Shown here in pieces: positions 24,791 to 28,526 of a stretch of 51,366 bases of DNA; position 1 is the first letter of the stretch; each line of letters begins with the position of its first letter. This DNA comes from an uncultured Gammaproteobacteria bacterium (lineage in GTDB: Bacteria > Patescibacteriota > Patescibacteriia > Patescibacteriales > JAKAJF01), in the NCBI GenBank assembly GCA_964360445.1, contig CAYHWE010000003.1:1-51366 (forward strand), in the 5' to 3' direction. Below the pieces are notes generated by a model, which was not told the DNA's origin, ran no database searches, and was given only the letters and a program-made list of their open reading frames with translations. Both the position numbers and the translations under genes were made by a program.

Positions 24791-26245
24791 TTATAATTTA
24801 TTGATTGCATTTTTCATTCTCTCCAAACTTTCTTTCTTTCCTAGCACATCCGCGATTTCAAATGGTCCGGGAGAAGCTTTGCGTCCAGTCAAGGAAACGC
24901 GCATCGGCCATAAATAATCCCCTACTTTCAAATCCTTTGCCTTAAGATATGCCATTACCCTCTCTTCTATTGATGTTTTTATCCAATTTCCTTCCTGAAT
25001 TTCATTAAGCAGTTCGGCCATTTTTTCAAGATTGTTTTTCACTTCTTCTTTTGTTAATTTTTTCCAAATCAAAAGCTCGGATTCATATTCAATTTCCGAA
25101 AAGAAAAATTCAGTCCCCTCTTTGATATCTGACAGCTTTTTCATCCTTTCCTGTTCAAGCGCGACAACTTTTTTCAAAAAATCATCCCGTTTTTTCCTCT
25201 CCTCTGACGTTTTGGAAATATTTTCCGCCAGATAAGGCTTGCATAACGCAACCAATTCTTCCAGCGGCTTTTGTCTTATATAATACCCGTTAAAATAATC
25301 CAACTTTTCAACATCAAAAACAGCCGGGCTGATTCCGATATCCTCAATCCTGAATTTTTCTTGCATATCGGCCAATGACAAAATTTCGTTATCGTCTTTC
25401 GGATGCCAGCCCATCAGAACGCAAAAATTCAACAAACTTTCAGGCAGATATCCCTTGGCGCGATAATCCTCGACTGCGACATCACCCTGGCGTTTGCTCA
25501 ATTTTCCGCCTTCTTTGTTCAAGATAAGAGATAGGTGGGCGAATTTTGGCGCTTCCCAGCCAAAGGACTTATAAAGCAAGATATTTTTCGGAAATGAAGC
25601 GATCCATTCATCGCCTCGTAATACATGGGTTATTTCCATGAGATGGTCATCGACTACATTCGCGAATTGATATGTCGGGATGCCGTTTGATTTTATCAGG
25701 ACATGATCTTCCATGTCCGCGCATTTGAATGTGATATCTCCGCGCAATTCATCATGGACGACAATTTCTCCGTCCAATGGCATCTTTTGCCTGATCACAT
25801 ACCTTTCTCCGCCGCTAAGTCTTCCCAATACTTCTTCTTTGCTTAAATTACGGCAAATCCGGTCATATCTTGGCGCCTGTTTCTTTTCTTGCTGTTCTTT
25901 GCGCATGCTATCCAATCTTTCCGGCGTACAAAAACAATGATAAGCCTCATCCTTATCCAGTAACTCCTGGATGTATTTATTATAAATTTCGACTCTTTGG
26001 CTTTGTGTGTATGGACCGAAGCCGCCATCAATATGAGGACCTTCGTCAAAATTTATGCCTATCCAATCCAGTATTTTTATCAGATTTTCCACTGCTCCGG
26101 AAACTTCGCGTGATTGATCCGTATCTTCGATACGCAAGATGAATTTACCGTCCATGCTTTTTGCGGCTAAATATACGAATAAAGCGGTTCTTAGGCTGCC
26201 GATATGCAAATACCCTGTCGGAGATGGCGCAAAACGAGTTCTCAT
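24791..26245 (-). CDS. gltX: Glutamate--tRNA ligase
   Basis: MRTRFAPSPTGYLHIGSLRTALF (HIGH) and KLSKRQG (KMSKS) are present. The ORF opens with GTG at 26254, so the ATG at 26245 is preferred. Confidence 0.95.
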   Translation of the reverse strand: MRTRFAPSPTGYLHIGSLRTALFVYLAAKSMDGKFILRIEDTDQSREVSGAVENLIKILDWIGINFDEGPHIDGGFGPYTQSQRVEIYNKYIQELLDKDEAYHCFCTPERLDSMRKEQQEKKQAPRYDRICRNLSKEEVLGRLSGGERYVIRQKMPLDGEIVVHDELRGDITFKCADMEDHVLIKSNGIPTYQFANVVDDHLMEITHVLRGDEWIASFPKNILLYKSFGWEAPKFAHLSLILNKEGGKLSKRQGDVAVEDYRAKGYLPESLLNFCVLMGWHPKDDNEILSLADMQEKFRIEDIGISPAVFDVEKLDYFNGYYIRQKPLEELVALCKPYLAENISKTSEERKKRDDFLKKVVALEQERMKKLSDIKEGTEFFFSEIEYESELLIWKKLTKEEVKNNLEKMAELLNEIQEGNWIKTSIEERVMAYLKAKDLKVGDYLWPMRVSLTGRKASPGPFEIADVLGKKESLERMKNAINKL

Positions 26246-26285
26246 ATTTTCCACAAATTACAAATCTTTCCACAAATATACAAAT

Positions 26286-26465
26286 TTATGAGAAATAGAT
26301 TAATAAATATAAATTCAATAATAAAGACAATATCAAGCTAATACTAGCAATAATCAGGATAATTTTCAACTTTTTATTCCTTGCCTCTAAATCAACCCTT
26401 TCTTTGCTTAAGATGGCGTTGGTCAGGTCGTTTAATAGATAGATGTATTTTTTGAATTTGAGCAT
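26286..26465 (-). CDS. Candidate small membrane protein (59 aa), below the ORF-track cutoff
   Basis: MLKFKKYIYLLNDLTNAILSKERVDLEARNKKLKIILIIASISLILSLLLNLYLLIYFS has a C-terminal TM helix. I see no clear SD. Confidence 0.3.
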   Translation of the reverse strand: MLKFKKYIYLLNDLTNAILSKERVDLEARNKKLKIILIIASISLILSLLLNLYLLIYFS

Positions 26466-26486
26466 AATAAAAAATTTGTCATTAAA

Positions 26487-26951
26487 CTATTTTATCACTT
26501 CCTTAAATTTTTCTAAAAACACCTTAGTCGATTCGCGTCTGACAAAATGTATTTCTTCGAGCAGTCTTTCGCTATCGACCCATTTCCAGTCTTCATGGTC
26601 CCAGAATTTTATCTTGATATCATCGTTGTCGCCAAGGAATTCAGCTATGAATAACCCCTGTTTCTGTCCTTTGAACCCTGAGTATCTTTTGATCTGCGTT
26701 TTTATCATCTTGCCGAATTCATATCTGTGCATGTTTTTGAAGCTGGCAATCGTCTTGAATTTATCTGTTCCCAGCTCTTCTCTCAGCTCTCTCGCCCCCG
26801 CTTTTTCCAGTCCTTCTCATTCAGTGCCGCCCTGAGGTAGCTGCCAGTGCTCATATATATCTTTTATTTTTACAAGCAGGATCTTATATCCGCTGTCTTC
26901 CTTTTTATAAAGCATGCAGGCGACATTCGGTCTGTAAAAATGCGGCAGAAC
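26487..26951 (-). pseudogene. RppH-like Nudix hydrolase module fused in frame to the upstream GT26 gene and interrupted by one in-frame TGA (26817-26819)
   Basis: Read through, the sequence is FYRPNVACMLYKKEDSGYKILLVK...WQLPQGGTE[TGA]EGLEKAGARELREELGTDKF...GQKQGLFIAEF...WKWV. This parallels E. coli RppH (YRPNVGIV...[27 protein letters not shown]). The stop falls inside the Nudix box. Confidence 0.6.
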
Positions 26952-27710
26952 ATATTTCCATTTAAAAAATTTCCATGGGAAAATAATGACCGCATCCGCC
27001 ATCCTTCTCCATCGCCATGGCTCTAAAATCAATCTCCAGAGCCATTCCATCTTTATCGCTCTTATGAATCCTGGCGCTCTTTTCACTTTGCCGCTTATAA
27101 AATCAAGACTGCCTCCGACGCCCATTGCGATTTTTACTGACGGCATATTTTTCAGATTATGGTATATCCATTTTTCCTGTTTCGGATGTCCGAATGCCAC
27201 AAAAATTATATCCGGCTCAGCTTTATTTATGTCTCCTATTAACAGTTTATTTTTTTCTTCTCCGCGCAGCCACCCCCCCTCTTCCAATCCCCACTCCCCC
27301 TTTTTAAATCCCTCTTCGGCGCCGGCAATGATCAGATCGGGAAATATTTTTTTCAGATTAGCCGCGGCCGATTTTGCGACGCCATCTTCCCCTCCCAATA
27401 AATAAACTGATTTTTTTTCTTCTTCCGCGATCCGGCAGATATCATAAATAAGGTCTGATCCATGGATTACATCCACCCTGCCTCCAAGGATAATACTTGC
27501 TAAAGCCAGTCCGAAACCGTCGGCTATGGCCAGGCTGGAATTGTTCAGGATATAAAAAAACTCTTCGTCTTTTAACGCCCTGACAACGAATTCAGGATTC
27601 GGGGTGGTTATCTGATTCTGTCCGGAAGACAGGAAAAATCTTATTTTTTTAAAAATTTCCTCTTTCGGCAAAGTTGATATGTTTATTCCGGCTATATTTA
27701 TTTTATTCAT
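26817..27710 (-). CDS. WecB/TagA/CpsF family (GT26) glycosyltransferase; the ORF as called carries the first 44 aa of a Nudix domain at its C-terminus
   Basis: INIAGINIST...QITTPNPEFVV...LAIADGFGLALA...IIFVAFGHPKQEKWI...MGVGGSLDFISGKVKRAP...MEWLWRLILEPWRWRR is typical of GT26. Confidence 0.8.
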   Translation of the reverse strand: MNKINIAGINISTLPKEEIFKKIRFFLSSGQNQITTPNPEFVVRALKDEEFFYILNNSSLAIADGFGLALASIILGGRVDVIHGSDLIYDICRIAEEEKKSVYLLGGEDGVAKSAAANLKKIFPDLIIAGAEEGFKKGEWGLEEGGWLRGEEKNKLLIGDINKAEPDIIFVAFGHPKQEKWIYHNLKNMPSVKIAMGVGGSLDFISGKVKRAPGFIRAIKMEWLWRLILEPWRWRRMADAVIIFPWKFFKWKYVLPHFYRPNVACMLYKKEDSGYKILLVKIKDIYEHWQLPQGGTE

Positions 27711-27847
27711 TTATTTTACGCTGTTTTTTCTTATTTTTACGATTAATGCACATGATTTCCCCAGTTTAATCACTGTATTTTTGCAAATATAAGGTAAAAA
27801 TAGGCTGATATTGTTTTTTACGGATATTTAAATGATACTATAAAGCC

Positions 27848-27876
27848 TTGACCTTGGCAAACGAGTATGCTAAGTT
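27848..27876 (+). promoter_or_regulatory. Candidate promoter of the orphan gene at 27993
   Basis: TTGACC, a 17-nt spacer, then an extended -10 TGCTAAGTT. Confidence 0.35.
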
Positions 27877-27992
27877 TTGGTATCAAATAAAATTTAATTC
27901 AAGGAGGAAAAAATAGGGAGGAAAAATAAACGGATTGCTTATGCAATCTTTTGATTAAAAATAAAAAAATTTGATATAAGGGGGGCTTTTCT

Positions 27993-28526
27993 ATGTATGC
28001 ATCAACGGCGACAGCGATGGCAGTAGAAAATGAACGCTCAATAAATATAAAAAAGGGGCCGTTTTCGGACCTGGAAAAGCTCTTAGGGCTCGAGCGCGAC
28101 GATCTTGAATACAACTTTGATTCCGGAAGAGAGATGTCCATAAGGTATATATTGCCCTATGGGAAGAATATTAAGGGCAATCTTAAGACGATCCGCATCA
28201 TAGAGGTGGTCGGGTATATGGCCAGCAAGATCGTTTCCCAGCTCGGCGAGACTCTTTATCAGACACATGATGTATCAAAGATAAGGGGCGGATACAAGGG
28301 CATGATTCCCGACGGAAGCGTGCTTGAAATATCCGTCACTCTTCGAAAGAGCCTGGGGAAAAAAAACGGCAAGGCACCGCATATTTTTCGCTGCAAGGTG
28401 AAAAAGGCGGGTAATGAGGAGGTGTTTGCCGCTGTTTTTCAGCTTGATTGCTGGGTCAACATCAGTAATAAGCTGTTAAAAGCTGTAAACAAAAAAATAC
28501 AGAAACATCGGCGCTCTCTCATGTGA
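27993..28526 (+). CDS. Hypothetical protein (177 aa), no recognisable domain
   Basis: A GGGGGG SD-like run lies 7 nt upstream. The gene has its own promoter and terminator and a basic C-terminus. I could not assign a family. Confidence 0.6.
   Translation: MYASTATAMAVENERSINIKKGPFSDLEKLLGLERDDLEYNFDSGREMSIRYILPYGKNIKGNLKTIRIIEVVGYMASKIVSQLGETLYQTHDVSKIRGGYKGMIPDGSVLEISVTLRKSLGKKNGKAPHIFRCKVKKAGNEEVFAAVFQLDCWVNISNKLLKAVNKKIQKHRRSLM

Follow-up and report, generated by a model that had tools for sequence, protein, structure and literature searches.

The fusion gene and its in-frame TGA

What does a single in-frame TGA mean in a conserved gene: a gene in decay, an error of sequencing, or a codon that is decoded? 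The question is raised by a gene on contig CAYHWE010000003.1, whose entire 51,366 bases form the window analysed here (contig C3 of the metagenome-assembled genome G000; 901 kb in 52 contigs, 42 % GC, rated 95 % complete). On the minus strand, a glycosyltransferase of family GT26 continues in frame into an RppH-like Nudix hydrolase domain, and the frame is cut by TGA within the Nudix box. The closest named relatives of the fusion protein, among the matches listed, belong to Parcubacteria, Falkowbacteria and the Patescibacteria group. We read the stop codon as a real nonsense allele (GGA>TGA), polymorphic and of very recent origin, by which the hydrolase half is lost while a TagA-like protein of stand-alone design remains, with a stub of 40 residues; the probability of this reading is put at about 0.68. 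The interruption is described by four features:

26487..27710, minus strand: the whole interrupted GT26-Nudix fusion gene, 407 codons with the TGA read through, ending with TAG at 26489-26487
26817..27710, minus strand: the open reading frame (ORF) as terminated under translation table 11, 297 amino acids (aa) with the full GT26 domain, its C-terminal helix and the first ~40 Nudix residues
26817..26819, minus strand: the in-frame TGA, codon 298, in place of the Gly codon preceding the first Glu of the Nudix box
26487..26732, minus strand: a remnant ORF of 81 aa whose start would be the first ATG beyond the TGA, without the Nudix box

The upstream ORF starts with the ATG at 27710 and its last residues are '...HWQLPQGGTE', directly before the stop at 26819-26817; exactly this 297-aa product is recorded for the contig as gene call P0125. 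Past the TGA, another 109 codons ('EGLEKAGARELREELG...') follow in this frame before the TAG is reached, and the ATG of the 81-aa ORF lies 28 codons (84 nt) 3' of the TGA. The sequence-only reading of this DNA had described the locus in just these terms: a GT26 domain joined in frame to an RppH-like Nudix domain, a TGA at 26817-26819 with the same frame continuing, and beyond it the ORF at 26487-26732 plus 84 nt upstream of its ATG. Domain searches with the read-through translation agree with that description. In the one frame of 407 aa, PF03808 covers residues 59-237 (E 2.6e-52), while the match to PF00293, from residue 259 to residue 393 (E 2.5e-12), runs across the stop; the RppH models of NCBIfam align to residues 258-406. 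Outside the stop no other lesion was seen in the fusion gene. Among 27 in-frame stop junctions examined genome-wide, a Pfam domain extends across the stop at the fusion locus only. Since not only a curated domain model but also homologues in the hundreds align across the stop, the interruption is more than chance.

Two genes by design, the first a GT26 gene with the TGA as its end and the second a small Nudix gene of its own further downstream, would suit the gene callers, which report the 297-aa product and leave an 81-aa ORF callable downstream. The first start codon, however, lies 28 codons past the TGA and thereby beyond the whole Nudix box, the upstream ORF holds 40 residues of the Nudix fold, and relatives with both domains have them in one open frame. 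Two separate genes are ruled out by this anatomy and by the Pfam match that spans the stop, and we give the idea next to no credence. The 81-aa remnant cannot act alone as a hydrolase because the Nudix box is absent from it.

Ancestral state, polymorphism and age of the stop codon

The TGA had been noticed from the sequence to replace the conserved Gly before the catalytic Glu and to differ by one base from GGA, and the homologues bear this out. In an alignment of 113 sequences the column holds Gly in 93 of 112 homologues, and among the remaining 19 are Lys and Asn (four each), Cys and His (three each), Arg (two), Ala and Ser (one each); the motif around the site reads HWQLPQGGT[D/E]G-E. Comparison with orthologues had been proposed as a check. 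The closest DNA relative, locus L029 (83 % protein and 80 % nucleotide identity, shared downstream neighbours), has GGA at codon 298, and relatives with both domains keep the fusion as one open frame. The ratio of nonsynonymous to synonymous substitution rates (dN/dS, NG86) against L029 was 0.096 in the GT part (residues 1-255), 0.081 in the Nudix stretch up to the stop (256-297) and 0.062 beyond it (299-407). Such a low value past the stop implies purifying selection on this part of the protein for essentially all its history.

The state of the codon in other samples was taken from contigs, not raw reads, of four public runs (X1, X3, X8 and X10) aligned on positions 26000-28200. Run X3, which belongs to another study than X1, provided a 331-base contig covering 26564-26894 at a depth of 4.92 with two differences to the window, one of them a plus-strand A>C at 26819, i.e. 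GGA. Run X1, the best match among the runs and perhaps the source sample itself, provided a 230-base contig covering 26818-27047 without any difference, which carries the T two bases from the contig end; X8 and X10 leave the site uncovered, and no run of RNA was listed for this DNA. A 3149-base contig of another assembly has the gene calls P0127 (61 aa) and P0128 (77 aa), which both end with '...QGGTE' according to an exact look-up. Since a fragment of 61-77 aa cannot reach both ends of a 3-kb contig, the stop is presumably present in that second assembly too, and a slip of the assembler is therefore unlikely. The fragment P0126, taken from yet another contig, has a different residue 44 than the window, and these assemblies are not all the same consensus.

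We propose that in the source population codon 298 changed from GGA to TGA by a G>T substitution, that the TGA is read as a stop and that translation would end after 297 residues. The product would keep the whole transferase with its C-terminal helix and would lose the catalytic helix of the Nudix domain and everything beyond it. The nonsense allele and the intact GGA allele, the latter seen in a different sample, would segregate side by side. The transferase half probably stays active, because GT26 proteins in the rest of the phylum mostly stand alone with ~250 aa, and a little full-length protein may still arise from the ordinary leakiness of UGA. The sequence-only reading had left recent pseudogenisation, a sequencing or assembly error, and readthrough or recoding side by side; the first is favoured here, in the form of a segregating nonsense allele, and the other two receive lower weight for the reasons given in the following sections.

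TGA as a stop codon in the genome

TGA is an ordinary stop codon in this genome. The 626 ORFs that reach 150 aa or more and do not overlap cover 79 % of the genome; 430 of them end with TAA, 110 with TAG and 86 with TGA. Behind a TGA the frame remains open for a median of 7 codons, behind TAA or TAG for a median of 10. Release factor 2 (RF2, prfB) is intact with 499 bits against a cut-off of 370, and release factor 1 is present. The prfB gene (G000:C14:2727-3785) consists of one uninterrupted frame of 364 aa and is without the programmed +1 frameshift site that is found in prfB of many bacteria. A tRNA with the anticodon UCA was found neither among the 34 tRNAs predicted by ARAGORN (default and 85 % threshold) nor among the 33 predicted by Infernal, a set which is incomplete, with Gly-UCC, Asp and Phe among the missing ones, so that the absence of UCA is no exclusion; at a threshold of 75 % ARAGORN returned 1151 hits, which are noise. 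ARAGORN also reported a tRNA-Ile with the anticodon UAU (C37:2347-2420) and an unusually long tRNA-Met of 94 nt (C26:1621-1714), the latter being the one ARAGORN tRNA not in the Infernal list.

Candidate devices for a local decoding of the stop were rejected. According to PMC13092985, a tRNA-Trp with an anticodon stem of 4 bp promotes read-through of UGA; in the tRNA-Trp(CCA) of this genome, unlike that form, all pairs of the anticodon stem are present, and it was dismissed as a read-through agent. Selenocysteine insertion was dismissed as well: the best match to the SelB model TIGR00475 reached 185 bits against a cut-off of 242, and no tRNA-Sec was found. No Rfam element matched at E<=1 in 26000-28300, and the RNA folds downstream of the stop appear unremarkable (-14.4 and -16.9 kcal/mol).

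According to PMC8629427, a reading of UGA as Gly (code 25) is known only from Absconditabacteria and Gracilibacteria, members of the same radiation, where it is supported by the presence of a tRNA-UCA(Gly) and the loss of RF2. The genome studied here resembles them in having in-frame TGA codons at conserved Gly positions. It differs in having only two such sites, an RF2, no tRNA(UCA) found and TGA as terminator genome-wide. A genome-wide code 25 or code 4 was rejected in view of the stop usage, RF2 and the tRNAs.

A second TGA-interrupted gene and the weight of the alternatives

A genome-wide count of in-frame TGA codons, suggested from the sequence alone, yielded two cases. In-frame stops flanked on either side by coding-like sequence were sought throughout the genome (best-frame screen), and an X was placed at the stop for the Pfam search. 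A strict codon-usage screen (7 junctions) missed the fusion locus, and so did an adjacent-ORF screen, in which an antisense ORF outcompeted the 81-aa remnant. At 25 further junctions (10 TGA, 14 TAA and 1 TAG) no Pfam domain crossed the stop; many of them were without any Pfam hit and hence are unjudged. The second case, itself one of these 25 junctions, is the gene of a secreted LysM-domain protein (G000:C1:29799-31619, locus L026) with one in-frame TGA at C1:31416-31418. Relatives G005 and G011 align through this stop uninterrupted. Its position is occupied by Gly in the two closest database homologues (68 % and 64 % identity) and in G011, by Ala in G005 and by Thr in G001. A LysM copy in another assembly, P0124, ends 15 codons before the TGA.

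Several observations weigh against a fresh nonsense allele. Both interrupted conserved genes (2/2) have the TGA at a Gly-aligned position, and no interruption by TAA or TAG was detected. With the codon usage of the genome, GGA>TGA accounts for 5.5 % of all single-base nonsense paths, for 17.8 % of the G>T/C>A paths and for ~27 % of the paths to TGA, hence the probability of two out of two is ~0.003 (uniform), 0.03 (G>T/C>A only) or 0.07 (given that both are TGA); these values are post hoc and rest on n=2. The T allele was met in two assemblies, and P0126, a fragment from another one, differs by one residue; the allele may therefore have persisted, a poor fit to a strongly harmful knock-out. 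All read evidence consists of contigs of low depth (3-5x), and in X1, perhaps the source sample itself, the site lies only 2 bases inside the end of the contig. Residues other than Gly are tolerated at site 298 in 19 of the 112 homologues, which makes activity of a read-through product conceivable, and the incomplete set of 34 tRNAs leaves room for a suppressor tRNA. Two TGAs at Gly sites are compatible with a mutational bias towards G>T combined with a better tolerance of the leakiest stop codon.

The T could be an error of sequencing or consensus, e.g., oxidative G>T damage fixed by very low coverage, in an organism that really has GGA. The shallow depth of about 3-6x would allow it, both interruptions would be G>T, which is the classic signature of library damage, GGA stands in the 331-base contig with its two differences, and another assembly breaks 15 codons before the second TGA. 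The T is present, however, in the window, in the independently built contig of X1 and in the gene calls of the 3149-nt contig, and a model restricted to G>T/C>A puts GAA>TAA at twice GGA>TGA (0.374 versus 0.178), with a P of ~0.03 for two GGA out of two. We regard an error as improbable.

The TGA could also be decoded, by leaky read-through of UGA or by an occasional reading of UGA as Gly, such that the full-length fusion is still made and no pseudogene exists. In both interrupted genes the closest homologues have Gly at the TGA, none of the 27 junctions examined was a gene interrupted by TAA or TAG, the sequence past the stop is intact with a dN/dS of 0.06, the T allele recurs in a second assembly, and UGA is known as Gly from the same radiation (PMC8629427). 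This is opposed by the 86 of 626 long ORFs that end with TGA and the median of 7 open codons thereafter, by an intact RF2 and the lack of a detected tRNA(UCA), so that neither of the two hallmarks given in PMC8629427 was found, by a tRNA-Trp(CCA) stem that is fully paired instead of the 4-bp form described in PMC13092985, by relatives of which none has a stop in the fusion gene, and by the mere two sites among ~870 ORFs. Decoding thus appears unlikely. A further-reaching version, in which a lineage outside the code-25 classes decodes UGA as Gly or reads through it efficiently at a few sites and uses it as terminator elsewhere, as an intermediate toward UGA=Gly, is a long shot.

The glycosyltransferase half

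The part of the gene that a nonsense allele would leave intact has two features:

27000..27536, minus strand: GT26 (WecG/TagA/CpsF) domain, residues 59-237, by PF03808, TIGR00696 and fold
26940..27020, minus strand: long helix at the C-terminal end of the GT26 part (residues 231-257), including FPWKFFKWKY, by the AlphaFold2 model

Membership in family GT26 follows from 177.5 bits to PF03808 (cut-off 27.4) and 142.5 bits to TIGR00696 (cut-off 69). The AlphaFold2 model of the read-through protein (m87f5e3e16d6e) has a mean pLDDT of 92.2 and a pTM of 0.82 and shows two domains. Its transferase resembles TagA/TarA of Thermoanaerobacter italicus (5wb4, 5wfg, 7mpk and 7n41): residues 1-237 align by profile (E 1.6e-58 to 7mpk), Foldseek gave template modelling (TM) scores of 0.91-0.93 by target, root mean square deviations of 1.8-2.6 Å and 36-38 % identity, and a helical appendage follows the core at the C-terminus as in full-length TagA. 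Unlike TagA, the fusion protein has an insert at ~133-160 and a whole Nudix domain beyond the C-terminal helix, and with 133.7 bits it falls below the cut-off of 350 of the TarA equivalog NF041710 (UDP-ManNAc:GlcNAc-PP-undecaprenol transferase). Residues T36, N38, E40, D64, G65, Q178, R226, R233 and R236 are invariant in the 113 aligned sequences. In the model, helix 231-257 leads directly into the first Nudix strand (259-271); by analogy with TagA it may bind the membrane.

The intact protein would add the second sugar to a lipid carrier of the C55-PP-GlcNAc type. The genome has two PF00953 genes (MraY/TagO-WecA type), one LCP ligase, the phosphatase BacA and a PAP2 phosphatase. From this gene content a lipid-linked glycan pathway is plausible. 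UDP-GlcNAc 2-epimerase (PF02350) was not found in the 95 %-complete genome, therefore the donor sugar of this GT26 enzyme may differ from that of TagA.

The Nudix half

The part that would be lost comprises the following features:

26532..26936, minus strand: RppH/Ap4A-hydrolase-like Nudix domain, residues 259-393 (fold to 406), by PF00293, RppH models, PDB hits and Foldseek
26766..26831, minus strand: Nudix box, residues 294-315 (GG-T-E-[TGA]-E-x7-RE-L-x-EE-x-G-T), by alignment

The read-through translation belongs to the Nudix superfamily with 47.4 bits to PF00293 (cut-off 21.1) and stays below the cut-offs of the RppH equivalogs of NCBIfam (PRK00714; 80.7 bits against 118 and 76.4 against 116). 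It is nevertheless the only RppH-like protein among the six Nudix genes of the genome, the other five reaching at most 27.5 bits. A second unusual fusion with a Nudix domain in this genome is a 286-aa ORF with an N-terminal Nudix domain (71.8 bits) and a C-terminal GrpE nucleotide-exchange factor (G000:C2:53953-54810; L015:1459-2316, plus strand).

The canonical Nudix box is G-x5-E-x7-RE-U-x-EE-x-G-U. The box of this family deviates from it with a G-to-E spacing of x4 in all 113 aligned sequences, and here a TGA codon additionally precedes the first Glu and interrupts the Nudix reading frame at 26819-26817; the E-x7-RE-L-x-EE-x-G part is present. E308, E311 and E312 are invariant in the 113 sequences, and Glu occupies position 299 in 94 of the 112 homologues, or in 95 of the 113 rows with the query counted. 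Compared with lupin Ap4A hydrolase and E. coli RppH, the HMMER alignments show one residue missing between GG and the first box Glu. The sequence-only reading had listed the short spacing beside the stop; since the shortness is common to all 112 aligned homologues, it is a family trait and not damage.

The nearest known structures are E. coli RppH (4s2w, 4s2y, 6vck and others) and lupin Ap4A hydrolase (1f3y); 1f3y and 4s2w were also the PDB matches by sequence. The alignments run from end to end (RppH 8-155, 1f3y 10-145) and include the N-terminal YRPNV, the WQ-x-PQGG motif and the GQ-x-Q motifs, and the fold agrees with TM scores by target of 0.70-0.78 in Foldseek (0.73-0.78 for E. coli RppH alone). 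The differences are an identity of 25-31 %, scores under every RppH equivalog cut-off, the fusion to a membrane-associated transferase, one residue less between GG and Glu, and the stop in this genome. An intact Nudix half might, as a tentative assignment from these similarities for which the odds are somewhat below even, hydrolyse the terminal pyrophosphate of RNA 5' ends or Np4N nucleotides while tethered to the envelope machinery. By their entry titles, 6d13, 6d1q, 5ygu and 6vck represent a complex of E. coli RppH with DapF, in which an RppH-type Nudix enzyme is likewise coupled to an enzyme of envelope biosynthesis; there the partner is an epimerase of peptidoglycan precursors and the contact is non-covalent, whereas the GT26 enzyme is covalently fused here. 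A functional parallel is conceivable by analogy. A role of the Nudix domain as phosphatase of undecaprenyl-PP (C55-PP) was rejected as unnecessary because BacA and PAP2 are both encoded in the genome.

The fusion in Patescibacteria

The combination of lipid-linked glycan synthesis with a nucleotide hydrolase had been considered unusual from the sequence, which did not survive the database search. With residues 250-407 as query, at least 282 proteins matched at E<=0.001 among 458 candidates of 223-713 aa; all 120 of the 282 that were listed have both Pfam domains, most of them with 390-440 aa. Within the genome and 40 relatives a match was obtained in 39 of 41. A single uninterrupted match from residue <=4 to >=402, without a stop, was present in 31 of the 40 relatives. 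Three genomes (G015, G028 and G030) matched both domains in two pieces inside one open frame, three (G012, G024 and G036) matched with the GT part only, and two further relatives had no match. A stop inside the fusion gene occurs in G000 only among the 41 genomes.

Relative G027 has the fusion gene on two contigs (C1:1-846 and C31:3499-3822) with the break at query residues 295/299, which is just where the window has its TGA; the split may reflect branching of the assembly graph at the highly conserved DNA of the Nudix box.

Phylum-wide, a match was found in 252 of 301 genomes, a tally that includes the unpublished genome G194, on which nothing else depends. Outside the order of the window most matches cover the GT part only (approximately residues 1-250, open frames of 245-290 aa), and both domains are spanned in ~13 of the 150 phylum-wide rows listed. 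The fusion family is, on the evidence of these matches, conserved and common in Patescibacteria (CPR, the candidate phyla radiation) and not an oddity. No publication on the GT26-Nudix fusion was found in the literature searched. The locus adds a broken member to a fusion family that is known and widespread but has remained unstudied.

Gene neighbourhood and further observations

Two neighbours follow the fusion gene:

26286..26465, minus strand: small hydrophobic ORF of 59 aa, directly downstream, in the same place in L029, without Pfam family
24791..26254, minus strand: gltX, glutamyl-tRNA synthetase, downstream, also a neighbour in L010 (PF00749) and L029

Upstream, a divergent ORF of 177 aa without Pfam family is located at 27993-28526 on the plus strand. 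In five of ten loci of relatives (L002, L007, L008, L009 and L011) the gene directly upstream of the fusion encodes a LigT/2H phosphoesterase, a family of RNA-end enzymes; in L011 an IS200-like transposase lies between the two genes. PF02834 (LigT/2H) was matched nowhere in the 95 %-complete genome G000, including the upstream gap 27711-27992, nor upstream in L029.

Elsewhere in the genome (G000:C26:10793-13687, L085), the Pfam match of a tRNA-guanine transglycosylase begins 14 codons past the TAA of the upstream gene, and the first in-frame ATG, GTG or TTG follows 31 codons after that TAA, which suggests a non-canonical start codon or a join by read-through.

Meaning of the interrupted gene

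The event itself is routine, a nonsense polymorphism in a metagenome-assembled genome. Its consequence for the annotation is larger, since a conserved gene of 407 aa is split into a 297-aa 'glycosyltransferase' and an orphan fragment, and the only RppH-like domain of the genome is hidden. Two stops at Gly positions in one genome of a radiation with UGA=Gly are a cheap lead. The natural pair of GGA and TGA alleles in near-identical populations is a ready test of the role of the Nudix half in a fusion gene that is intact and common in related ultra-small groundwater bacteria.

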